The position numbers and the translations under genes were made by a program. From Candidatus Magasanikbacteria bacterium GW2011_GWC2_37_14 (GTDB lineage Bacteria; Patescibacteriota; Patescibacteriia; Magasanikbacterales; UBA922), in the NCBI GenBank assembly GCA_000990355.1, contig LBSX01000005.1:4584-68583 (forward strand): a stretch of 64,000 nt of DNA. Direction: 5' to 3'. Under the pieces are notes generated by a model. That model was not told the origin of the DNA. It was given only the letters and a program-made list of their open reading frames with translations, and searched no databases. This document shows, in pieces, positions 7,849-59,707 of this stretch. Numbering within the stretch: the stretch's first letter is position 1; each line of letters starts with the position of its first letter.

Positions 7849-7874
7849 TTACCTTGAGTTTATCACAATTGTCT

Positions 7875-9206
7875 ATGATCCAGCAAATTATTGATCTCCA
7901 TATCCACTCCAAATACTCCCGGGCGTGTAGTAAGAGTTTGGAATTGTCAGAAATTGCCAAGGCTTGTGCTATTCGTGGGGTAGATATTGTAGCAACAGGG
8001 GATTTTACCCATCCTAAGTGGTTTGAACATATAAAGACAAGTTTGGTGGAGGAAAATGAAGGGGTTTATAAATTGAAGGCTCCCACTCCCCCTACCCCCT
8101 CTCGGGCAGAGGGGGACAGTGAAACCCGTTTCATTATTGGTACAGAATTATCGTGCATTAAAAAACACAAAGACAAAACTCGAAGAATTCATGTGTGTGT
8201 TTTTGCTCCCAATATTGAAGTGGCAGAAAAATTTAATAACAAATTAGAAACAATGGGTTTTAATTTACGTTCTGATGGTCGGCCAATTTTAGGTTTAACA
8301 GTAAAACAGTTGTTAGAAATTATGTTAGAGACTGATGAACGAATGATTATGATTCCCGCCCATGCTTGGACGCCGTGGTTTGGTATTTTTGGTTCCAAAG
8401 GTGGCTATAATAGTTTAGAAGAAGCTTTTGAAGAATTAACGCCAAAGATTTTTGCAATTGAAACTGGTTTATCTAGTGACCCACCAATGAATTGGAGGCT
8501 TAGTAAATTGGATAAAATTGCACTAGTATCCAATTCTGATGCTCATAGTTTGGAAAAAATTGGGCGTGAAGCCAATGTTTTGGAATTTGTAGATGAAAAA
8601 GCCATTACTTATGAAAATATTTTTAACGTCATTAAGGAGAGTTGCCACGTAAAATCTGCTTCATCAGCAGATCACGTGGCTGGAAAGTTACTCTATACAA
8701 TAGAGTTCTTTCCAGAAGAAGGAAAGTATCATTATGATGGTCATGCGAATTGTAAATTTGTTTGTGCACCAGAAGAAAGTAGAAAATTGAAAAATATTTG
8801 TCCTAAGTGTAAAAAAGAATTAGTAATTGGAGTAATGAATCGCGTGACGGAGTTGGCTGACAGAACAGAAGAAGAAGCAAAAAAAATAAAACACGTTCCA
8901 TTTAAAAGTCTGGTACCCTTGCCAGAAATTATTGCTGATTGTTTTAATTGTGGAGTGAGTACCAAGAGAGTAAAAGAAGTATATAATAAGTTAATTAAAA
9001 AGTTAGGTAATGAATTTAATATTTTATTAAATATTGATACGCAAGAAATTGCGTTTACTTCAGAACCAATCATTGGTGAAGCAGTTGAGCGAGTAAGAAC
9101 TGGTAAAATTTATGTACGGCCTGGTTATGATGGCGAGTTTGGAGTAGTAAAAGTGTTTAGTGATGAGGAAAGAGTTGGCAAAAAACAAATAGGCCTTGAG
9201 TTATAA
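7875..9206 (+). CDS. PHP-domain metal-dependent phosphoesterase family protein with C-terminal Cys4 cluster
   Basis: DLHIHSKYS PHP motif, HAWTPW, CKFVC..CPKC; contains in-frame palindromic insertion at 8081-8118. Confidence 0.6.
   Translation: MIQQIIDLHIHSKYSRACSKSLELSEIAKACAIRGVDIVATGDFTHPKWFEHIKTSLVEENEGVYKLKAPTPPTPSRAEGDSETRFIIGTELSCIKKHKDKTRRIHVCVFAPNIEVAEKFNNKLETMGFNLRSDGRPILGLTVKQLLEIMLETDERMIMIPAHAWTPWFGIFGSKGGYNSLEEAFEELTPKIFAIETGLSSDPPMNWRLSKLDKIALVSNSDAHSLEKIGREANVLEFVDEKAITYENIFNVIKESCHVKSASSADHVAGKLLYTIEFFPEEGKYHYDGHANCKFVCAPEESRKLKNICPKCKKELVIGVMNRVTELADRTEEEAKKIKHVPFKSLVPLPEIIADCFNCGVSTKRVKEVYNKLIKKLGNEFNILLNIDTQEIAFTSEPIIGEAVERVRTGKIYVRPGYDGEFGVVKVFSDEERVGKKQIGLEL
8081..8118 (+). 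repeat. GC-rich palindromic mini-element (core CCCCTCTCGGGCAGAGGGG) inserted in frame in CDS
   Basis: encodes APTPPTPSRAEGD; near-identical elements in three other CDS. Confidence 0.7.
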
Positions 9207-9868: not shown

Positions 9869-9940
9869 GCTCTCGTCGTTCAATGGATAGGACGCCAGCC
9901 TCCGAAGTTGGTGATGCGCGTTCGATTCGCGCCGAGAGCA
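9869..9940 (+). tRNA. tRNA-Arg (anticodon CCG)
   Basis: 72-nt cloverleaf: acceptor GCTCTCG/CGAGAGC, anticodon loop CTCCGAA, T-arm GCGCG-TTCGATT-CGCGC. Confidence 0.75.
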
Positions 9941-9999
9941 CAACTAAAGTTCTCCGCCTATGGCGGAAATTCCTGTCGGGGGTACTAATAGAAATTATT

Positions 10000-11025
10000 A
10001 TGATAAGTAAAAATAAAAAAATTATTATAAAAGATTTAGATAGCAAAATTCGTTTGGATGTTTTTTTGACTGAAAAACTAAAATTAACTCGTTCTAAAAT
10101 TCAAAAATTGATTGAGCAAAAATTAATTTTGTTAAACAAAGAATTACCTAAAAAAACTGGTACCATGATTTTGAATGGTGATGAGATTGAAATTATTAAA
10201 CCAGTAATTGTTAAAAAAATTATAACCAATAAAATAGAAAAAAATTTGAAAACAGAAATTGCTAATTTGCCAATTGAAATTGTCGCCGAAACTAGTGATT
10301 ATTTGGTGTTAAATAAACCAGCTGGTATATTGGTCCATCCAACCGAAGCCGGAGAAGAAAATACATTGGTAAATTGGTTGCTAACAAAGTATCCCAAAAT
10401 AAAAAAAGTTGGTGACTCCCACTCCCCCCACACCCCCTCTCGGGCAGAGGGGAAAAACATAAGACCTGGTATTGTTCATCGTTTGGATAAAGAAGCTTCG
10501 GGATTATTGGTAATTGCCAAAACTCAGGCTATGTTTGAACATTTAAAAAAACAATTTCAAAATAGAGAGATAAATAAGGAATATTTAGTTTTGGTACATG
10601 GTACAGTACAAAAAAATTATGATCAAATTGATTTTGAAATAGATCGTGGTCATGATGGTAAAATGGTGGCTCGGCCCAAAACTGATAAATTTAAAGTAAA
10701 GAATGTAGAAAAAATTCAAGAAGGCAAAGAGGCTTTGACCGAGTTTGTAATAGAAAAGAATTATGTTCGTTATACTTTGCTTCGTGTAAAAATTTTTACT
10801 GGTCGTACCAATCAAATTCGGGTACATATGATGGCTTACAGTCACCCAGTAGTTGGTGATAAATTATATTTTAATAAAAGATTAAATAGAAAACGAGATA
10901 CAGAATTAAACAGAGTATTTTTGCATGCTGTAAAGCTTGGTTTTACTGATTTAAATGGTTATGAGCAAACTTTTACAAGTAAATTGCCCAAAGAATTGGA
11001 AAGTTTTTTAAAAGACTTAAATTAA
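10000..11025 (+). CDS. RluA/RluD-family 23S rRNA pseudouridine synthase (S4 domain + PUS)
   Basis: LDVFLTEKL...SKIQKLI S4 motif, HRLDKEASGLLVIAKT catalytic motif; track ORF start 9883 lies inside tRNA, so start set at MISKNK; in-frame insertion at 10417-10452. Confidence 0.85.
   Translation: MISKNKKIIIKDLDSKIRLDVFLTEKLKLTRSKIQKLIEQKLILLNKELPKKTGTMILNGDEIEIIKPVIVKKIITNKIEKNLKTEIANLPIEIVAETSDYLVLNKPAGILVHPTEAGEENTLVNWLLTKYPKIKKVGDSHSPHTPSRAEGKNIRPGIVHRLDKEASGLLVIAKTQAMFEHLKKQFQNREINKEYLVLVHGTVQKNYDQIDFEIDRGHDGKMVARPKTDKFKVKNVEKIQEGKEALTEFVIEKNYVRYTLLRVKIFTGRTNQIRVHMMAYSHPVVGDKLYFNKRLNRKRDTELNRVFLHAVKLGFTDLNGYEQTFTSKLPKELESFLKDLN
10417..10452 (+). repeat. GC-rich palindromic mini-element inserted in frame (encodes DSHSPHTPSRAEGK)
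   Basis: TCCCACTCCCCCCACACCCCCTCTCGGGCAGAGGGG; same family as 8081. Confidence 0.7.
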
Positions 11026-12166: not shown

Positions 12167-12170
12167 AATA

Positions 12171-12195
12171 AAAGCCGCGTTCATCGCGGCTTTTA
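12171..12195 (+). terminator. rho-independent terminator after rplS
   Basis: AAAGCCGCG-TTCAT-CGCGGCTTTT. Confidence 0.6.
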
Positions 12196-12214
12196 AAATC
12201 TCTGGATTTGTGAT

Positions 12215-12285
12215 AATCTGGGTGGGTAAGGAGGAGAGAGAGGTGGCTTCCGCCCAAGGCGGACCAGCCTCGGGCTGGGAGTGGT
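12215..12285. repeat. GC-rich mini-hairpin cluster (CCGCCCAAGGCGG, CCAGCCTCGGGCTGG)
   Basis: GC-rich island in AT-rich spacer, same style as hairpin arrays at 12641, 48336, 57627. Confidence 0.4.
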
Positions 12286-12302
12286 TATATTAATAATTTG
12301 GT

Positions 12303-12545
12303 ATGCATTACGTTTACATTTTGAAAAGTGTAAAAAGTGGAAAATTGTATAAGGGTTTTACTAATGATTTAAAAAGAAGAATAAAAGAACATAATTTAGG
12401 TAATAGCGAATTTACATCCAATAATGGTCCTTGGAAGTTGGTGTATTATGAGGCTTTTTTGTCAAAAAAGGACGCGCAACAAGAAGAAATTTTTCTAAAA
12501 ACAGGTAAGGGGAGAGAAAGAATAAAATATTTACTAACAATATAA
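12303..12545 (+). CDS. GIY-YIG nuclease family protein
   Basis: HYVYILKSVKSGKLYKGFTNDLKRRIKEHN GIY-YIG motif. Confidence 0.8.
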   Translation: MHYVYILKSVKSGKLYKGFTNDLKRRIKEHNLGNSEFTSNNGPWKLVYYEAFLSKKDAQQEEIFLKTGKGRERIKYLLTI

Positions 12546-12550
12546 ATAAT

Positions 12551-12637
12551 GGAGGCGTGGCTGAGTGGTCGAAAGCACCGCATTCGAAACGCGGCAGACC
12601 TTTACCGGTCTCAGGGGTTCAAATCCTCTCGCCTCCG
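12551..12637 (+). tRNA. tRNA-Ser (anticodon CGA), class II with long variable arm
   Basis: acceptor GGAGGCG/CGCCTCC, anticodon loop TTCGAAA, long variable arm CAGACCTTTACCGGTCTCAGG, T-loop TTCAAAT. Confidence 0.75.
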
Positions 12638-12640
12638 CAT

Positions 12641-12690
12641 GGGTTCCCCGAGATAAACTCGGGGTCCCGGGTTAATCCCGGGATAAATCC
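12641..12690. repeat. GC-rich hairpin modules CCCCGAGATAAACTCGGGG and CCCGGGTTAATCCCGGG
   Basis: first module nearly identical to CCCCGAGTATACGGGG in the 57627-57790 array. Confidence 0.5.
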
Positions 12691-12709
12691 CGCCCTTTCC
12701 TCATAATAT

Positions 12710-12980
12710 ATGTCCATAAAAATCACCTATTTTGTACATGGTACAACAACCGACAACGAAAAAGGCCTGGCGACTGGCTGGGAGCAGGGAGAGTTGTCGG
12801 CTTTGGGGATTGAACAATCCAAAAAATTATCAAAACAAACATATTGCCATTGTGGCTCATCAAGCTCCGCAACTAGCCTTAGATGTAATTTTGAGTGGTA
12901 AAACCTGGGAACAGGCAATTGACGAAGATTGGCGAAAGCAGAAAGCCTGGCAACCAGGGTGGGGTTATATTATTGAATAA
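12710..12980 (+). pseudogene. histidine phosphatase (phosphoglycerate mutase-like) family remnant, frameshifted and internally deleted
   Basis: N-terminal ITYFVHGTTTDNEKGLATGW...LGIEQ in one frame and HIAIVAHQAPQLALDVIL C-terminal motif in another frame; combined only about 90 aa versus about 200 for intact family. Confidence 0.45.
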
Positions 12981-16644: not shown

Positions 16645-17847
16645 ATGAATAAAACAGGCATTGTTTTAAAACCAGGTCGTGATAAAGCCATAAAAAATAA
16701 ACATCATTGGATTTTTTCCGGAGCAGTTTCATATATTTCCGAATTTAGTAATGGTGAAATTTTGCCAGTTTATAATTCTACTGGAGAATTACTAGGCCAT
16801 GCTTATTGCAACAAGAATACTTCTATTTTGGGAAGAATGATTAGTTTTGGCAATACTGATCCAGTCAAAGAATTAGAAAAAAATTTGGAAAGCGCGATTG
16901 CGATGCGTAAAAGTTTGTTTAATGAAAAAATAACTAATTGTTATCGTCTGGTTAATTCCGAGGGTGACAATATTCCGGGTTTAATTATAGATAAATATGC
17001 TGGTGTTTTGGTAATTCAAAGTGCGACAGCGGGTATTGATTTATTAAAACCACAAATTGTAGAATTTTTAGTAAAAAAATTAAAACCCGTGGCAATTTAT
17101 GAAAAATCCGATTTATCATCTCGCCGTGAAGAAGGTTTGACTATGAGCGAAGGTTTGGTATATGGTAAAGAAGTAAAGAATGTAGAAGTAATTGAAAATG
17201 GTTTAAAGTTTGTAGTGGATTTGGTGAATAGCCAAAAAACTGGTTTTTTTCTTGATCAGCGGGAAATGCGGGTTTGGGCAGGCGAATTAGCCAAAAACAA
17301 ATCTGTGCTTAATTGTTTTGCCTATACTGGAGGTTTTTCTTTGTATGCCGTTCAAGGCGGGGCTAAACAGGTAGACACAGTAGATATTTCTAGTGAAGCA
17401 ATACAGAGAGCCGAGGAAAATTTTAAATTAAATGGTTTTCTCCCGCCTCCCCCTACCCCCTCCTCGGGCATGAGGGGGCAATTTGGATTTATTACGGCTG
17501 ACATTTTTGAATTTTTACGAGCTGAAAAATTAAATTATGATTTAATTATTTTGGATCCGCCAGCTTTTGCTAAAAAGAAAACCGATGTTATCAAAGCTTG
17601 TCGAGGCTACAAAGATATTAATCGCTTGGCACTACAAAAAATGCCAGCTGGTAGTATTTTAATCACTTCTTCTTGTTCTTATCATGTAGACGAAAAACTC
17701 TTCCAAACTGTAGTTTTTCAAGCTGCGGTAGAAGCAAACAGAAAGGTCCGGATAATTGGTCGTCATCATTTAGCACCCGACCACCCAATAAATATCTTTC
17801 ATCCCGAGGGGGAATATTTAAAAAGTTTGGTTTTGTACATAGAGTAA
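16645..17847 (+). CDS. rlmI: 23S rRNA (cytosine-C5)-methyltransferase RlmI-like (PUA + SAM MTase)
   Basis: LNCFAYTGGFS motif I, ILDPPAFAKKK motif IV; in-frame insertion at 17441-17478. Confidence 0.8.
   Translation: MNKTGIVLKPGRDKAIKNKHHWIFSGAVSYISEFSNGEILPVYNSTGELLGHAYCNKNTSILGRMISFGNTDPVKELEKNLESAIAMRKSLFNEKITNCYRLVNSEGDNIPGLIIDKYAGVLVIQSATAGIDLLKPQIVEFLVKKLKPVAIYEKSDLSSRREEGLTMSEGLVYGKEVKNVEVIENGLKFVVDLVNSQKTGFFLDQREMRVWAGELAKNKSVLNCFAYTGGFSLYAVQGGAKQVDTVDISSEAIQRAEENFKLNGFLPPPPTPSSGMRGQFGFITADIFEFLRAEKLNYDLIILDPPAFAKKKTDVIKACRGYKDINRLALQKMPAGSILITSSCSYHVDEKLFQTVVFQAAVEANRKVRIIGRHHLAPDHPINIFHPEGEYLKSLVLYIE
17441..17478 (+). repeat. GC-rich palindromic mini-element inserted in frame (encodes LPPPPTPSSGMRGQ)
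   Basis: TCCCGCCTCCCCCTACCCCCTCCTCGGGCATGAGGGGG. Confidence 0.7.
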
Positions 17848-20807: not shown

Positions 20808-20852
20808 CTGTCATTGCGAGCCCCGTCCGAGCGGGGCGAAGCAATCCCAAGG
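20808..20852. repeat. hairpin repeat GTCATTGCGAG-[CCCCGTCCGAGCGGGG]-CGAAGCAATCCCAAGG
   Basis: second copy with different inner hairpin at 60834-60882; both abut a stop codon. Confidence 0.65.
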
Positions 20853-22316: not shown

Positions 22317-23075
22317 ATGCCCATAATGCGCTTGCAAAAATTTATTGCGGACCAAGGAATTTGTTCTCGGCGAAAGGCCGAAGAACTTATTTTGGCTAAA
22401 AAAGTAAAAGTAAATGGAGTAGTAGCCGAAATTGGTTTAAAAATTGACAGTGAGAAAGATAAGGTGGAAGTGGTAAATTTCAATTCTCCCACCACCCCGG
22501 CTTTCAGCCACCCCTCCTCCGGCAGGAGGGGACACGTGTACATTGCCTTGAACAAACCAGTGGGTTTTATTTGTTCGGCAAGTAATGAACAGGGTAAAAC
22601 TGTTTTGGAACTTCTAACAAAAGAAAATTATTTTGGTAAAGAAAAATTAGAAATTAAAGATCGGGTTTATCCCGTTGGCAGGCTAGACAAAGATTCAGAA
22701 GGTTTAGTATTGCTTACGAATGATGGTGAACTTACCAATAAATTAATTCATCCACGTTATCAACATGAAAAAGAATACGAAGTAGGGTTAAACAAACCAT
22801 TGGGAAAACCTGAGGTAAAGATTTTAGAAAATAGTATGGAAATTGGCCCTGGAGAACGTGTTTGGGGAATAAAAATAAAAGATCTTGTTTGCAAAAATGA
22901 TCAAACTATAGCTACAGTGATTTTGCACGAGGGCAAGAATCGTCAAATTAGACGGATGTTTGGTAAATTGGGCTATAAAGTGATGTTTTTACGTCGGGTG
23001 CGTATTGGTAAATTAAAATTAGGCACTTTGCCTTTGGGTAAATGGAAAATGATTGGCAAAATTCAAATAATTTAA
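22317..23075 (+). CDS. RsuA/RluB-family rRNA pseudouridine synthase (S4 domain)
   Basis: RLQKFIADQGICSRRKAEELI S4 motif, GRLDKDSEGLVLLTNDG catalytic motif; in-frame insertion 22487-22531. Confidence 0.85.
   Translation: MPIMRLQKFIADQGICSRRKAEELILAKKVKVNGVVAEIGLKIDSEKDKVEVVNFNSPTTPAFSHPSSGRRGHVYIALNKPVGFICSASNEQGKTVLELLTKENYFGKEKLEIKDRVYPVGRLDKDSEGLVLLTNDGELTNKLIHPRYQHEKEYEVGLNKPLGKPEVKILENSMEIGPGERVWGIKIKDLVCKNDQTIATVILHEGKNRQIRRMFGKLGYKVMFLRRVRIGKLKLGTLPLGKWKMIGKIQII
22487..22531 (+). repeat. GC-rich palindromic mini-element inserted in frame (encodes SPTTPAFSHPSSGRRGH)
   Basis: CCCCTCCTCCGGCAGGAGGGG palindrome core. Confidence 0.7.
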
Positions 23076-30349: not shown

Positions 30350-30377
30350 GTAGAGACGCAAAATTTTGCGTCTCTAC
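30350..30377. repeat. REP: 28-bp perfect palindrome GTAGAGACGCAAAATTTTGCGTCTCTAC (copy 1, just downstream of RAYT stop)
   Basis: perfect palindrome with 5' GTAG; 3 copies in window. Confidence 0.8.
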
Positions 30378-30389
30378 AGTGAAACGTTA

Positions 30390-30956
30390 TTATACCAACA
30401 ATCCCTCAGGATTATTTCTATCACGGTCCCACATTGAGGGATTATTGAAAATATATTGTTGAATATTGTGTAGCGAAATTTCGTCACGAATGATGTGGTC
30501 GTAAAATCGTGCTTGCCAGATGAATGAGACGTTGTTTGTTGTAGCCCATTTTGATACACCAATTTTAAATCCGCGAATAATTGATGATAAATTTTTGGAT
30601 TGTGGGCCAAATTTATTGTGGTAAAGTTTGTCGTTGTCGTGTAGAGACGCAAAATTTTGCGTCTCTACAATTGGCGGATTGTTGTTAATTATAATAATTC
30701 CATGTACATGATTTGGCATTATCACAAATTCGTCTAATGTTACAAACGGAAAATGTTTTGGTATTTCCAACCAATATTTTGTGGCCATTTTTCCAATATC
30801 ATTCAAAACAATTTCATCACCAACTATTTCACCAAAATAACAGAATTTATTTTTGGTGCAAATAGTTATAAAATAATAACCCGTTTGGCTATAGTCATAT
30901 CCAGCCAAACGGGTTGAAGGTATTAAAAATTTATTTCTAAATAAATTGTCGGTCAT
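30390..30956 (-). CDS. REP-associated tyrosine transposase (RAYT; IS200/IS605 Y1 HuH family)
   Basis: RLAGYDYSQTGYYFITICTK N-motif, HVHGII HuH motif, WQARFYDHIIRDE...YIFNNP C-terminal Tyr motif; contains REP copy in frame. Confidence 0.8.
   Translation of the reverse strand: MTDNLFRNKFLIPSTRLAGYDYSQTGYYFITICTKNKFCYFGEIVGDEIVLNDIGKMATKYWLEIPKHFPFVTLDEFVIMPNHVHGIIIINNNPPIVETQNFASLHDNDKLYHNKFGPQSKNLSSIIRGFKIGVSKWATTNNVSFIWQARFYDHIIRDEISLHNIQQYIFNNPSMWDRDRNNPEGLLV
30641..30668. repeat. REP copy 2, in frame inside RAYT CDS (encodes VETQNFASL)
   Basis: identical 28-bp palindrome. Confidence 0.8.
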
Positions 30957-35856: not shown

Positions 35857-35887
35857 AAAAAATCCTGATTAAAATCAGGATTTTTTA
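35857..35887. terminator. bidirectional terminator between convergent genes
   Basis: AAAAATCCTGATT-AAA-ATCAGGATTTTTT. Confidence 0.6.
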
Positions 35888-37101
35888 AATCTATAAATTT
35901 CTCGACCCAGATGTTGATTTGGTCGATGGTAGAGTAGAGACGCAAAATTTTGCGTCTCTACTCTAAATGGCATAATTTCAAAACCAATTTTTTTCAAATC
36001 TTTTTCCCAATTTATCGCTAACCAATCATTACCAATTTTAAATTTAGGGATAGCAATTACTATTACACCTTGTGGTTCCAGAATTTTGTAAAATTCTTGG
36101 CAAGCTTTTAAATAAAGACTTTTTAATTCAGTTAATTGTTTTTCTAATTGGTTTTTGTTTTCACGACCAGTTAAGGGTTTGCCCAGATAAGTCTCAGTAA
36201 CAATTAAAGTAACAGAATTGTTTTTTATTTTTTTAGTTAATTGAGTGGCGTCACTAATAATAAATTGGCAACCAATATTTTTAAGATTATATTTTTCTTT
36301 TAACCAAAGGAAATTTTTTTCACTGTCAACAACGGCTTTTTCCGAAATGTCAGCAGCAATTAAATTATTAAAATTCATGAGAGTGGCTTCATTTAATATT
36401 GTACCCGAGCCACAAAATGGGTCCAAGAGAATTTTGTTTTTAATCACCCCGGCGCCCTCGGCAACTCCCCCCGCCTGCCTTGACGGCATGTCGGGCAGGC
36501 CTGCCCCCTCTTGGTAAAAGGGGGATAAAGCGAGATTAATCATTATCTTGGCAAGCTTGGGCGGTAGCATGCCAGACAAGTCATCACTGTCTGGTCTTTG
36601 GTAGTCACGTTCAGCCATTTCTTCAAATGGCTGTAGAGCGGTCGTAACAAAAATTTGCTTATTGATTACTGTTAAATCCGATTTTTTCTCTACTAATTTG
36701 TTGTAAAGAATAGTAGCGGTATTTTTTGGCTCAATGTAGCGTACAGAATAACCGTTGGTTTTTAAAGCTTTTTTAAGTTCCAAAGCTAGTCTTTGATCAT
36801 TTAAAGAATATTCAATTTTACCAGTAGGGCAATTAGTTATTAAGTATTCTTGTAGGTGAGTTAACAACCCCCCTTCGCCCCCCTTTATTAAGGGGGGAAT
36901 TTCGGTAGCAATTTTTATAGTGCCACCCAGCTGTTTGATTAATTTTGCTGAATCTAGTTTTTTGTTGGTTTCAATTAATAAATATTGGTTGGAATTTTGT
37001 TTTAGGGTTTTAATATTTTTAAGTTTTAATGACGAAAAAACCGCCTGGATTTCGGCGGTGGAAATAAGAGGTTGGTGCCCTAATTGAAAAAGGAAATTCA
37101 T
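35875..37101 (-). CDS. UPF0020/THUMP-type RNA (guanine-N2) methyltransferase-like protein
   Basis: LDPFCGSGTILNEA SAM motif I; carries three in-frame repeat insertions (36447-36527, 36868-36897, REP at 35934-35961). Confidence 0.6.
   Translation of the reverse strand: MNFLFQLGHQPLISTAEIQAVFSSLKLKNIKTLKQNSNQYLLIETNKKLDSAKLIKQLGGTIKIATEIPPLIKGGEGGLLTHLQEYLITNCPTGKIEYSLNDQRLALELKKALKTNGYSVRYIEPKNTATILYNKLVEKKSDLTVINKQIFVTTALQPFEEMAERDYQRPDSDDLSGMLPPKLAKIMINLALSPFYQEGAGLPDMPSRQAGGVAEGAGVIKNKILLDPFCGSGTILNEATLMNFNNLIAADISEKAVVDSEKNFLWLKEKYNLKNIGCQFIISDATQLTKKIKNNSVTLIVTETYLGKPLTGRENKNQLEKQLTELKSLYLKACQEFYKILEPQGVIVIAIPKFKIGNDWLAINWEKDLKKIGFEIMPFRVETQNFASLLYHRPNQHLGREIYRFKKS
35934..35961. repeat. 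REP copy 3, forms in-frame 3' end of methyltransferase CDS (VETQNFASL...)
   Basis: identical 28-bp palindrome, extended palindrome TAGAGTAGAGACGC..GCGTCTCTACTCTA. Confidence 0.8.
36447..36527. repeat. GC-rich composite hairpin element, in frame in CDS (encodes ...QEGAGLPDMPSRQAGGVAEGAG...)
   Basis: about 47 bp (GGCCTGCCCGACATGCCGTCAAGGCAGGCGGGGGGAGTTGCCGAGG) shared in reverse orientation with 48451-48500. Confidence 0.7.
36868..36897. repeat. GC-rich hairpin CCCCCCTTTATTAAGGGGGG in frame in CDS (encodes IKGGEGGLL)
   Basis: perfect stem of 6-7 G:C pairs inside AT-rich coding sequence. Confidence 0.55.
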
Positions 37102-42559: not shown

Positions 42560-42689
42560 AAAAAGAAAGACTAGAGATTATTTATATAAATATTATAACA
42601 TATTTATAACAAAAAGGTTAGGAAGCAAGGTTGACAAAAAAGAATTTTTGGAGTAAAAATAACTTGAACCATCACCAAGTTAGGCAATC

Positions 42690-43013
42690 ATGGACGATCT
42701 CAAGAAATTCACCCTGGATGCTTCCACGTCGGAAGCGCTCGCGCAGTCGCTCGAGGCTCTCAACAATTTCTTGCTCGGACAGAGAGTCACCCGGCGACAC
42801 TCGGTCGCCCAGGCAGGCTGGCTCTTCAAGATCCTCTTGGAGTACAGGGACAGCCCCAGCGCCAACGGGCACCCCCAACTGGCTATTGCCCGGACACTGG
42901 AAGAAGCCCAGAAACACCGGGGGCTGGGGAAGTCGGTGGATCTCTATCTCCACCAGGCCACCCCCGCCAGCGAGGTCATGGAGTTCTACTTCGTCTGGCA
43001 CATCGTCCGCTAG
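42690..43013 (+). CDS. hypothetical 107-aa protein on a high-GC (about 60%) islet
   Basis: GC3-rich codon usage consistent with real coding in a high-GC donor; candidate TTGACA-17-TAAAAA promoter in adjacent AT-rich DNA. Confidence 0.4.
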   Translation: MDDLKKFTLDASTSEALAQSLEALNNFLLGQRVTRRHSVAQAGWLFKILLEYRDSPSANGHPQLAIARTLEEAQKHRGLGKSVDLYLHQATPASEVMEFYFVWHIVR

Positions 43014-43201
43014 GAGGACCACCATGGTTGCTCGTTCGCCGCCGTTCTTTCACCAAGGGGGAAGCCCCCGACTGCACGATACCGGAGGAACAGTCGGGAA
43101 CAGTCGAAAGATCATCTAGAAATAGGTGGTTTTTTGTTTTTATCTTACATTGACAATTAGGTAAAATTGTGATAAAATAATATTTCAGTTATTTATAAAA
43201 T

Positions 43202-48336: not shown

Positions 48337-48565
48337 CCCCCTACAAGGGGAGGATTACGAAATGTGTTTGTGTGCGCGTGAACGAGTGATTGAACGTCGT
48401 CGCTGTCCCCCTCTTTCCCAACCTGCCTGCCGGTAGGCAGGGAGGGGGTAGGCCTGCCCGACATGCCGTCAAGGCAGGCGGGGGGAGTTTGCCGAGGCTT
48501 GCACAAACTCCGGCAACTCCACCGTCCGCCCTGGGCGGGCACCTCCTCTTGGTAAGAGGAGGATT
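48336..48565. repeat. array of GC-rich hairpin modules (includes CTCCCCCTACAAGGGGAGGATTACGAA and the GGCCTGCCCGACATGCCGTCAAGGCAGGCGGGG module)
   Basis: modules shared with 36447-36527 (reverse orientation) and 57763-57790. Confidence 0.7.
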
Positions 48566-48720: not shown

Positions 48721-49101
48721 TCAACGCCCGCAGTTGAAGAGCTTGTGACTGCAGTTGGGGGTGGGGTCGCAGACATCACCACTACCGTCCTTGTCGACGT
48801 CGGTCTGGTCCGAGTTTGGTTTCTCGGGGCAGTTGTCGCAGACGTCGCCCACACCGTCCTTGTCGAAGTCGCGTTGGTCGTGGTTGAAGGTCCGCACCAA
48901 TGGGCAGTTGTCGATGCGGTCGGGGATGTTGTCCCCATCCACGTCGGAGTTGCGTTCGGCTTCGGCGGCCGACTGCTTCTGTCCGGCCTGGTAGTCTTCC
49001 CAGGCCTTCTCTCTGTCGGACGCTGGCCCACGCATCATGAGGACACAGCCTGAGAGATTTAGCACCATCGCCCACAGGGCGATAAGGATCATGCGGTTCA
49101 T
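48721..49101 (-). CDS. lipoprotein with thrombospondin type-3 (calcium-binding) repeats, on high-GC islet
   Basis: lipobox LNLSGC, three DxDxDGxxDxxDNC TSP3 repeats; GC about 60%, GC3-rich codons. Confidence 0.6.
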
Positions 49102-56883: not shown

Positions 56884-57525
56884 CTACCGGAAGAGTACGC
56901 ACCGCGGGGGCACGATCAGGCTGGCGGGGTTGACACCGTCCCAGCTGATCAGTCCCTGGAGCACCATGTTTGTCATGTGCGACTGCCACGCCCGTTCGAC
57001 TTCGTTGACGCGCTTGGCCAAGGAGTCGGGGGTGTCGTCATCGCGGATCAAGACCGGGTAGTGGAAGAAGACCGGTCCTCGGTCGAATTCTTCGGTGACG
57101 AAGTGCATGCAGACCGCGCTGGCGGTCAGCTCGCCTTGGTGGAAGGTGGCCATCACGGCTTCGTGCACGTGGTGGCCGTACATGCCCGGACCGCCGTACT
57201 TGTACAACGGACCGGGGTGGATGTTGATGGTCTTCTTGGGGTCGAGACCCCTGACCAACTTCAGCCAGCCGGACAGCGCGACGAGGTCGGGCTGGAAGGC
57301 GTCGACGAGAAGCTGATATTGGTCTACCGACCAGGGTGCGGGCATGTGAACGAATTTGACGCCCAATTTTTCGGCGCGTCGTTCTACACCACCACCTCGC
57401 ACGTTGGAAACTACGGCCACGATGTCCGCCTGGAGAACTCCGGTGCGGGAATTCTCCACGAGTTCTTGGAAGCCAGAGCCTCCACCCTCCCTGGAACCCG
57501 AAGCGAATACGAGAATCCTTTTCAT
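56884..57525 (-). CDS. PurN-like formyltransferase (stand-alone formyl_trans_N domain, 213 aa) on high-GC islet
   Basis: MKRILVFASGS N-terminus, NIHPGPLYKYGG and HFVTEEFDRGPV motifs of GAR formyltransferase family; GC about 60%; start set at MKRIL (track ORF starts upstream). Confidence 0.7.
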   Translation of the reverse strand: MKRILVFASGSREGGGSGFQELVENSRTGVLQADIVAVVSNVRGGGVERRAEKLGVKFVHMPAPWSVDQYQLLVDAFQPDLVALSGWLKLVRGLDPKKTINIHPGPLYKYGGPGMYGHHVHEAVMATFHQGELTASAVCMHFVTEEFDRGPVFFHYPVLIRDDDTPDSLAKRVNEVERAWQSHMTNMVLQGLISWDGVNPASLIVPPRCVLFR

Positions 57526-57626
57526 GTCTGAGCCTTTCTGGTTGTTGTTCACCACTCCCAAAAATATTTTGTAAATAACTAAACTATTGGTTAGCTTAGC
57601 GCTAAATATGGGAATTGTCAATGGTA

Positions 57627-57790
57627 TTCCCCCTTAGAAAAGGGGGAATAAGGGGGTTGTTGGTAAACCCTCCCCTTGTAGGGGAGGTACCCCGAGTATA
57701 CGGGGTGGTGGGGTTCGTAGTTCTAACATGAACCCCCACCCTCCGACTGCGACGTCGGAGGACTCCCCCTACGAGGGGGAGGATTACGAA
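57627..57790. repeat. array of six consecutive GC-rich hairpins (TTCCCCCTTAGAAAAGGGGGAA, CCCTCCCCTTGTAGGGGAGG, CCCCGAGTATACGGGG, GGTGGGGGTTCG..GAACCCCCACC, CTCCGACTGCGACGTCGGAG, CTCCCCCTACGAGGGGGAGGATTACGAA)
   Basis: last module nearly identical to 48336-48362; CCCCGAG..CGGGG module matches 12646-12664. Confidence 0.7.
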
Positions 57791-59094: not shown

Positions 59095-59205
59095 TTGTAA
59101 TTTTCAATTTACAATAATCAATTTACAATAAATTTTCAATGAGATAATTTTCATTGATAATTTGTAAATTGAAAATTTGTTGAAAATTGTAAATTGATAA
59201 TTGAT
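59095..59205. repeat. about 110-bp imperfect palindrome built from CAATTTACAAT units in yebC-ruvC spacer
   Basis: left arm TTTCAATTTACAATAATCAATTTACAATAAATTTTCAATGA mirrors right arm TCATTGATAATTTGTAAATTGAAAATTTGTTGAAAATTGTAAATTG. Confidence 0.6.
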
Positions 59206-59707
59206 TATTATGTCAAACAACAAAGGTAAAGAGCGTGTTTTAGGAATTGATCCAGGGTTCGGTAGAACTGGTTTTGGGGTAATTGAAAAAATAAATGGCG
59301 TTTGGAAAGTTTTGGGTTATGGTTGTATCGAAACTCCCAAGACTGATGATTATTCTTTAAGATTATTAGAACTTAGTAAATGTTTAAAACAAATTATAAA
59401 AAAGTATCAGCCGGCAAAAGCGGGGGTAGAGGATTTGTTTTTTTATAACAATGCCAAAACCGCAATAAAAGTCGGTCAGGCTAGGGGTGTAGTCCTCTTA
59501 ACTTTGGCCGAAGCAAATATTCCGGTTTGGGAATTTACCCCGCTACAAGTAAAACAAACTATTACGGGTTATGGTAAAGCCGAAAAATCAGCCATGCAAA
59601 AAATGGTGCAAAAATTGTTTGGTTTAACCAAGAAAATTACCCCCGATGATGCGGCCGATGCCTTGGCAGTTGCCCTAACAACTGCAGGGTGCTTAAAACT
59701 TAAATAA
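59201..59707 (+). CDS. ruvC: crossover junction endodeoxyribonuclease RuvC
   Basis: VLGIDPGFGRTGFGVIE N-terminus, conserved acidic residues. Confidence 0.9.
   Translation: MIIMSNNKGKERVLGIDPGFGRTGFGVIEKINGVWKVLGYGCIETPKTDDYSLRLLELSKCLKQIIKKYQPAKAGVEDLFFYNNAKTAIKVGQARGVVLLTLAEANIPVWEFTPLQVKQTITGYGKAEKSAMQKMVQKLFGLTKKITPDDAADALAVALTTAGCLKLK

Follow-up and report, generated by a model that had tools for sequence, protein, structure and literature searches.

Insertions in an operon-embedded methyltransferase gene

We analysed a 64,000-nucleotide stretch of DNA (hereafter, the window) from the assembly of Candidatus Magasanikbacteria bacterium GW2011_GWC2_37_14, a very small groundwater bacterium of the Candidate Phyla Radiation (GCA_000990355.1, contig LBSX01000005.1, positions 4,584 to 68,583 of the forward strand), focusing on 1 open reading frame (ORF) that encodes a putative S-adenosylmethionine (SAM)-dependent methyltransferase (MTase) and contains 3 different short hairpin repeats. 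The original prediction, made from the letters alone, held that a single MTase gene carries three in-frame repeat insertions, and this is confirmed by the alignment of orthologs and by the multi-copy status of the inserted elements. The inserts and the conserved motifs of the gene, in window coordinates and in the order of translation, are as follows.

35875..37101, (-): Trm11/Trm14-like (UPF0020) class I SAM methyltransferase ORF, 408 aa, intact
36868..36897, (-): insert 2, 30 nt hairpin CCCCCCTTAATAAAGGGGGGCGAAGGGGGG (coding strand), encoding P69-G78
36447..36527, (-): insert 1, GC-rich modular hairpin element (78-81 nt), net gain of ~78 nt (26 codons)
36400..36423, (-): motif I (SAM binding), D227-PFCGSG-T234, intact, 8 residues downstream of insert 1
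36181..36198, (-): motif IV region, T302-E-T-Y-L-G307, with Thr304
35934..35961, (.): insert 3, perfect 28 nt palindrome GTAGAGACGCAAAATTTTGCGTCTCTAC, encoding V381-L389 (VETQNFASL)

The frame is open over all 408 codons from an ATG start, as had been stated, and this start shares 4 nt (ATGA) with the stop of the gene upstream. The MTase gene is the last of a type IV pilus-like operon (T2SSE-T2SSF-PilM-PilN-x-x-MTase) and is convergent with a SpoIID gene; the synteny of the operon is conserved in the orthologs at the related loci compared. The identical 408-aa protein has been deposited as US42_C0005G0042 from a Candidatus Magasanikbacteria metagenome-assembled genome (MAG) and was found on 9 contigs from independent assemblies (ENA, JGI, and NCBI), none of which shows the frameshift or premature stop that would have refuted the prediction; in one ENA assembly, a single base among 3227 is different from the window, and this base is outside the MTase gene. 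The GC content of the window is 36%, whereas within the MTase ORF it reaches 0.63-0.70 at 36440-36529 and 0.40-0.45 at both 36830-36919 and 35900-35959.

The earlier assignment to UPF0020/THUMP-like methyltransferases is reasonable at the level of the predicted fold, the clade being distant from characterised enzymes. Pfam returned UPF0020 (E 2.8e-9; 37.4 bits versus a cut-off of 22.3) and Methyltransf_31 but no THUMP domain match, and the NCBIfam matches (TIGR01177, Trm14, and RlmL-type models) were weak and far under the cut-offs, with, for TIGR01177 and Trm14_Arch, 61.2 bits versus 316.55 and 31.4 versus 280. The sequence matches in the PDB were Trm14 and Trm11, and the best Foldseek match of the predicted structure was aTrm11 (6zxw, 5e71; E 1.5e-21, target-normalised TM 0.71), in an alignment spanning the full-length model and both domains. 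Like the archaeal/eukaryotic Trm11 and Trm14 enzymes, which are m2G tRNA methyltransferases with a THUMP domain (6zxw, 5e71, 3tm5), the MTase combines the class I SAM fold with the motif I sequence DPFCGSGT. By contrast, its identity to these enzymes is only 17-20%, and motif IV is EPY in the MTase clade (ETY in the present copy) rather than the (D/N)PPY of Trm11/Trm14-type enzymes; the substrate class is putative. More than 3000 homologs were found, the nearest being ~50% identical Magasanikbacteria proteins, mostly of 365-380 aa (usually ~375), and the gene is a syntenic ortholog present across Magasanikbacteria.

Alignments of 33 and of 120 orthologs (the query and 119 others) revealed that the query is longer at exactly 3 sites, with the core segments having the same length in 120/120 sequences. 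All 3 inserts consist of whole codons, are free of stops, and have no counterpart in most of the 119 other orthologs, ~90% of which lack any insert. Site 1, located between the helix PKLAKIMINLA and strand beta1/motif I (LLDPFCGSGT), comprises 35 aa in the query versus a median of 9, with insert 1 encoding S193-G218 (SPFYQEGAGLPDMPSRQAGGVAEGAG). Site 2 comprises 22 versus 17 aa; the insert 2 peptide, PPLIKGGEGG, follows GGTIKI in the N-terminal domain and lies in the loop between strand 61-67 and helix 79-90. Site 3, from GFEIxPF to LLYHR, comprises 14 versus 11 aa, and orthologs devoid of insert 3 read PF-EEDDH-LLYHR. In the original prediction, this last repeat marked the 3' end of the ORF. 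It is instead internal (residues 381-389), being separated from the stop by 19 codons, and the conserved C-terminal motif LLYHRPNQHLGREIYRFKKS comes after it.

The alignment and modelling that had been proposed as a check assign each of the 3 inserts to either a loop or a hairpin at the surface of the predicted structure, with motif I and the core untouched. In the AlphaFold model, built on the 33 orthologs (mean predicted local distance difference test score (pLDDT) 86.7, predicted template modelling score 0.88), insert 1 is the sole long low-confidence stretch (pLDDT <50 at 197-217, flanks >90) and would be a disordered loop, insert 2 is modelled as a loop (pLDDT of 67 for the block 71-80), and insert 3 as a beta-hairpin (pLDDT ~86-88). 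Motif I is intact, with D227, C230, G231, S232, and G233 being invariant in the 120 orthologs, and the MTase has kept all residues that do not vary among the 120 sequences. Residue 304 in motif IV is Pro (TEPYLG) in 119/119 other orthologs and Thr (TETYLG) in the present copy alone. Digestion of the insert-bearing protein would yield junction-spanning tryptic peptides, such as QAGGVAEGAGVIK.

Repeat families and their recurrence in orthologs

Insert 1 reads CCCCCTTTTACCAAGAGGGGG-CAGGCCTGCCCGACATGCCGTCAAGGCAGGC-GGGGGGAGTTGCCGAGGGCGCCGGGG on the coding strand, and a 48 nt core of it has a 98% identical reverse-complement copy at 48442-48489, within the following feature.

48436..48495, (+): intergenic copy of the insert-1 core, with a 57 nt core common to it and the MTase copy, in the opposite orientation

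This copy sits in a cluster of GC-rich hairpin modules at 48.3-48.6 kb, between the convergent genes for SSB and a TSP3-repeat protein, and a scan of metagenome contigs yielded 5 further copies. The full element consists of the hairpin CCCCCTCTTwCCAAGAGGGGG, followed by (G)TAG-GCCTGCC-loop-GGCAGGC-GGGGGGAGTTGCCG, with the head of the core being GTAG-GCCTGCC..GGCAGGC in 6 of the 7 copies and beginning with GCAG in the MTase copy. The order of hairpin and core is also the same in 6/7 copies, the exception being the copy at 48.4 kb, where the first hairpin encloses an additional one. Because the full copies show the same architecture, the MTase gene holds a single modular element; thus, the position predicted for the GC-rich element (36447-36527) holds, whereas its description as a composite of separate insertions was rejected. 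Four of the 6 reading frames of insert 1 are open, and a 131-aa chimera of 5 open insert-1 frames had no match in the protein database at E <= 1.

The separate hairpin announced at 36868-36897 is present, with CCCCCCTTTATTAAGGGGGG occupying positions 36878-36897 of the 30 nt element. Its architecture, C5-6/loop/G5-6/N4-5/G5-6 (C6-loop-G6-N4-G6 in the MTase copy), had 0 occurrences in 200 Markov simulations and recurs in 3 other loci of the Candidate Phyla Radiation (CPR), L001 (5117-5145), L123, and L126 (numbers with L denote loci and numbers with P orthologous proteins), as well as in the window itself:

57629..57656, (+): CCCCCTTAGAAAAGGGGGAATAAGGGGG, intergenic, of the insert-2 family by its architecture

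Insert 3 has the layout GTAG-AGACGCAAAA/TTTTGCGTCT-CTAC, with GTAG/CTAC ends, and together with its local flanks forms a 36 nt palindrome (35930-35965). The corresponding RNA hairpin has a predicted energy of -26.5 kcal/mol (z = -9); its reading as an intrinsic terminator was rejected, given that it lies inside the ORF and has no U-run next to it on either strand. There are 3 exact copies of GTAGAGACGCAAAATTTTGCGTCTCTAC in the window versus 0 expected, the other 2 being associated with a single ORF:

30641..30668, (.): copy of GTAGAGACGCAAAATTTTGCGTCTCTAC within ORF 30390..30956 (-), again read VETQNFASL
30350..30377, (.): intergenic copy of GTAGAGACGCAAAATTTTGCGTCTCTAC, 12 nt past the stop of ORF 30390..30956 (-)

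The same palindrome is found within a 943-aa ORF of a related contig, and intragenic copies comprise 2 of the 3 in the window plus those in L001, L127, and L130. Four of the 6 frames of the palindrome are open. Every intragenic palindrome seen in CPR loci is in the VET..SL frame, with 9 or more events that appear to be independent, and the same frame is used in 10/12 intragenic candidates from other phyla, although the RDA..VST frame is open too.

To delineate the family, 1 genome per species was scanned with the pattern GTAGAGACG-N6-14-CGTCTCTAC, which matched at least 120 stretches. Among the matches listed, the family occurs in Bacteroidota, Cyanobacteria (being abundant in Nostocales loci), Chloroflexota, Desulfuromonadota, Omnitrophota, and Acidobacteriota, in loci spanning 31-74% GC (L003-L122); the palindromes are 28-29 nt long, with fixed arms and an inner part of 10-11 nt that varies and is almost always self-complementary, which argues that the hairpin matters. 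Among these same matches, 2 of the 137 ORFs flanking palindromes matched Pfam Y1_Tnp at E < 1e-4. All-against-all comparison together with a search for the HUH motif uncovered 3 mutually related Bacteroidales ORFs (L024, L056, and L107) with the HUH motif MPNHxHxII and palindromes on their flanks. These ORFs match the NCBIfam model NF047646, "REP-associated tyrosine transposase" (RAYT; REP, repetitive extragenic palindrome), with E values of 1e-18 to 3e-9, below the curated cut-off of 80 bits, and show weak Pfam Y1_Tnp matches.

L107, 5214-5584 and 6424-6451: RAYT-like locus with palindrome flanks
L024, 1184-1913: RAYT-like locus with palindrome flanks
L056, 2254-3030: RAYT-like locus with palindrome flanks

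In L107, 1 flank of the RAYT-like gene is a tandem array of 7 palindromes with a period of 57 nt. Since the palindrome family flanks RAYT-like genes in these 3 loci, the label REP given to insert 3 in the original prediction is apt. RAYT genes beside the clustered palindromes of L005, L053, and L078 were ruled out, the ORFs being ordinary genes, and a query with an approximate IS608 TnpA sequence gave no match. Rfam identified 3 tRNAs in the window and no RNA family over any repeat element, and a literature search with the raw repeat sequences returned only primers and unrelated matches; the MRSC-65-2 motif (PMC11109978), which has UYCCGG repeats, was rejected as a distinct element. Of 91 palindromes in non-CPR genomes with a GC content of <=50%, 12 lie well inside stop-free frames of at least 200 codons in unverified gene calls (for example, in L013, L028, L042, L086, L094, L117, and L121), and translated intragenic REPs may thus not be confined to Patescibacteria.

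The sites occupied in the query are also occupied in other orthologs. At site 1, inserts of at least 5 aa are present in 10 other orthologs and are mostly VETxxxxSL palindrome peptides: VETHLGAS, VETLHTTSL, VETRHCLVST, VETHCNASL, VQTSHGAPL, and, in 2 orthologs, VETQNFASL, identical to the insert 3 peptide. At site 3, 6 others have inserts of at least 5 aa, 4 of which are clearly repeat-derived (VETRLISSL, VQTHLGASL..., PPCQGGIKGG, and SPAKGELEGV), and repeat-like inserts are found at site 2 in P0034 and P0061. In the neighbour-joining tree, the insert-bearing orthologs belong to separate lineages interspersed with insert-free relatives, from which we infer ~6 independent events at site 1. One of these was inherited by the 4-member clade of P0045, P0054, P0058, and P0070, in which the palindrome is decaying, P0054 reading AETQNSTSP. 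In the DNA of the L001 ortholog (P0034), site 1 is occupied by a GTAGAGACG..CGTCTCTAC palindrome of 29 nt, site 2 by a GC-rich block of 70 nt, and site 3 by a C6/G6 hairpin; thus, a second species has all 3 sites filled, by different elements. The conservation of P0034 is ordinary, with 3/118 deviations. Pairs of empty and filled sites, such as NLGIAG/YDD in P0098 versus NLGLAG[IVETQNFASLR]D in P0070 (net gain of 30 nt), indicate that palindromes of 28 and 29 nt came with net gains of 30 and 33 nt, respectively.

Probable tolerated colonisation and its alternatives

Collectively, these observations make it reasonably probable, in our judgement, that 3 mobile hairpin repeats have colonised an intact, operon-embedded MTase gene in a manner that is tolerated and filtered by selection; the enzyme probably remains functional. 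The elements would insert more or less indiscriminately, and a RAYT-like Y1 transposase, past or present, probably mobilises the REP type in trans. Purifying selection would then purge the insertions that break the frame, bring in a stop, or strike the structural core, and the survivors would be confined to a few permissive loops, as extensions that are translated and for the most part either disordered or folded as beta-hairpins. Such a filter would explain why the same 3 loops are occupied independently in other species and why the palindrome is always in the VET...SL frame. Most insert frames are open because the elements are GC-rich. The preference for the VET..SL frame suggests selection on the encoded peptide. 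Removal of the inserts at the RNA level or ribosomal bypass is unlikely: every intragenic copy keeps the frame and has no stops, and preservation of the frame would be unnecessary if the inserts were untranslated.

Several results weigh against this interpretation. The MTase deviates at 8 of 99 near-invariant columns versus a median of 2 in the orthologs, and only 5/119 other orthologs reach 8 deviations, which is also their maximum; the substitutions include P304T, unique in motif IV, and F334C, where 117/119 have Phe. Because the MTase is divergent at conserved positions, purifying selection on it may already be relaxed. That the same loops are occupied repeatedly could be due to a target preference and not to selection alone. 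Furthermore, no RAYT, IS200-like, or other transposase is encoded within the 64 kb window, and mobilisation in the source genome is therefore something that we can only infer. Finally, as regards the features of miniature inverted-repeat transposable elements, the elements are hairpins or palindromes, and the pairs of empty and filled sites, which at ~80% protein identity are too divergent, displayed no consistent target-site duplication or precise boundary.

The original prediction had left the choice between tolerance of repeats and early decay of the gene. Tolerance is supported by the in-frame loop positions, the recurrent sites, and the precedent of P0034. Decay, that is, relaxed selection or early pseudogenisation of an MTase dispensable in this lineage, with repeats and damaging substitutions accumulating before any frameshift or stop, we consider unlikely. 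The presence of 3 inserts in 1 gene and the deviations at conserved columns, P304T and F334C among them, are what such a history would leave. Nevertheless, the 408-codon frame is open at 36% GC, where ~7% of random codons would be stops by base composition, the inserts are all stop-free and of whole codons, motif I and the residues that are constant in all 120 sequences persist, the AlphaFold model has high confidence, and the position in the operon and the translational coupling are conserved. Similar numbers of deviations are seen in other isolated lineages, and the inserts themselves are no evidence of decay, because P0034, which also has 3, shows ordinary conservation and because the sites are recurrent. 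That the whole pattern is an artefact, either of a chimeric assembly or binning error or of ordinary loop expansions resembling repeats, would fit with the source being a MAG and with GC-rich blocks in an AT-rich contig being a classic sign of chimerism. However, an assembly artefact is excluded by the recovery of the identical gene in independent assemblies, and the exact preservation of the frame, the further copies, exact or with 98% identity, in the window and on other contigs, and the same kind of inserts in orthologs from unrelated assemblies render artefacts of either kind extremely improbable.

It is also conceivable, although very unlikely, that the inserts have been exapted and are useful as new loops that bind RNA or protein, beside the SAM pocket and within the THUMP-like domain, or as regulatory mRNA or DNA hairpins, through which the pilus operon could be modulated in its transcription, in the speed of its translation, or in the stability of its mRNA. 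The repeated occupation of the same loops across species, the use of the VET..SL frame where RDA..VST is open as well, the retention of the site-1 insert in the clade that inherited it, and the high stability of the palindrome hairpin speak for a benefit to the host, whereas the filling of the same site by unrelated elements in different species, the insert-free state of ~90% of orthologs, the predicted disorder of insert 1, the decay of the palindrome in the inheriting clade, and the presence of the same elements in unrelated genes and intergenic DNA speak against it. A further idea, to which we give little credence, is that the REP-type palindromes and GC-rich hairpin elements of Patescibacteria target, or are fixed more readily in, a small set of defined loops in enzymes of RNA modification and other housekeeping functions, which would make them a general and recurring source of new translated segments, always in 1 preferred frame; if true, "extragenic" REPs would be routine intragenic agents of protein remodelling in tiny genomes, possibly with a site-specific insertion mechanism.

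Tolerated, selection-filtered colonisation is, by analogy, the Patescibacteria counterpart of a process which, to our knowledge, is textbook knowledge essentially for Rickettsia alone. According to PMC10969869, Rickettsia palindromic elements (RPEs; Ogata et al. 2000) are multi-copy sequences of ~100-150 nt located in frame in many unrelated housekeeping genes. Like the elements described here, RPEs occupy a small AT-rich genome, are translated as an extra peptide compatible with the fold, and are also found in intergenic regions. Unlike RPEs, the present elements are 28, 30, and ~78 nt long, probably represent other sequence families, and reside in Patescibacteria; up to 3 families are found in a single gene, the same loops are struck in the orthologs of many species, and 1 of the families is a REP-type palindrome common to many phyla. 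What is new relative to RPEs is thus the phylum, the size (28-80 nt) and REP-like type of the elements, their multiplicity per gene, and their recurrence at identical loops. No report of in-frame repeat colonisation in Patescibacteria was found in the searchable literature, the coverage of which is incomplete.

The second system for comparison is that of REP elements, their RAYTs, and the REP doublets known as REPINs, with the conserved 5' GTAG head (PMC3116915). Insert 3 resembles REPs in that it starts with GTAG, is dispersed and multi-copy, and has an inner stem with compensatory changes between genomes, and in that copies flank a RAYT-like gene in 3 Bacteroidales loci; the insert-1 core is similar in 6/7 copies, in which GTAG is followed by a palindrome. 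The differences are that REPs are extragenic by definition, whereas 2/3 of the window palindromes are inside ORFs, that the 64 kb window has no RAYT gene and no REPIN-like doublets were seen, that the RAYT-like matches elsewhere are below the NCBIfam cut-off, and that GTAG/CTAC belongs to a fully symmetric palindrome in the present family. No name for the GTAGAGACG..CGTCTCTAC family was found in the accessible literature. Nostocales, in which the family is abundant among the matches listed, reportedly contain small dispersed repeats, which are mobile hairpins of <100 nt whose ends are conserved and whose palindromic interiors vary, and the family may correspond to these cyanobacterial repeats. 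The GC clusters or double-hairpin elements of fungal mitochondria are likewise short mobile hairpins, sometimes located in genes of AT-rich genomes.

The orthologs of the MTase are natural replicates and provide a direct map of the places in a Trm11-like fold that tolerate insertions. A 28 nt palindrome shared by many phyla is linked to RAYT-like transposases and is read inside genes, contrary to the definition of REPs as extragenic. Furthermore, such inserts inflate and distort protein families derived from CPR metagenomes and risk being misread as lineage-specific domains or as evidence of pseudogenes.

Repeats in other genes and surroundings

At least 5 other genes in the window hold in-frame repeats, namely, ORF 30390..30956 with the palindrome and 4 genes with a fourth family (CTCCCACTCCCCC..ACCCCCTCTCGGGCAGAGGGGG).

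8075..8121, (+): fourth family, in frame in ORF 7854..9206 (function unassigned)
10411..10454, (+): fourth family, in frame in a RluD-like pseudouridine synthase, 9883..11025
17437..17481, (+): fourth family, in frame in a RlmI-like PUA+SAM methyltransferase, 16645..17847
22486..22539, (+): fourth family, in frame in the linker between the S4 and catalytic domains of a pseudouridine synthase, 22317..23075

All 4 copies have the same orientation and frame (..TPSRAEG.. / ..PSSGxRG..), and 3 of the 4 hosts are RNA-modification enzymes. The start that was called mechanically for the RluD-like ORF falls within the span of a tRNA (9869-9940), and the real start codon must therefore be further downstream. 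Two genes on related contigs, one for a family 2 glycosyltransferase (GT2) and one for a tRNA-dihydrouridine synthase (Dus), carry an in-frame insert-1 element in the opposite orientation, and each of the two contains several in-frame repeat-derived segments.

L126, 1341-2459, (-): Dus gene
L125, 1377-2591, (-): GT2 gene

The segments in these 2 genes include the type "VIARSDSDEAI / GIATPHSSGARND". In the window, an intergenic hairpin, GTCATTGCGAGCCCCGTCCGAGCGGGGCGAAGCAATCCC, is located at 20810-20848 between the PfkB and AdoHcyase genes and is apparently of the same repeat type as the "CHCEEADKKADEAI"-like peptides of the L125 gene.

Intergenic clusters of the same repeat modules lie at 48.3-48.6 kb and 57.6-57.8 kb. 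There are 3 GC islands of 50-60% in this 36% GC genome, at 56884-57621 (-), 48721-49101 (-), and 42620-43120, which resemble DNA acquired from a foreign source by horizontal transfer; one corresponds to a formyl-transferase gene, another to a thrombospondin-type-3 repeat protein gene, and the third, of 0.5 kb, has ORFs overlapping on both strands and no Pfam match. Two of the 3 islands are adjoined by clusters of GC-rich hairpin repeats. The region 12170-12980 is free of ORFs and contains GC-rich structured blocks at 12238-12285 and 12625-12683; Rfam identified in it only an 87 nt tRNA (12551-12637), with no match for the block 12238-12285. Finally, an AT-rich imperfect inverted repeat at 59098-59210, with 56 nt arms that are 73% complementary and 1 nt apart, is located between the YebC-like and RuvC genes.

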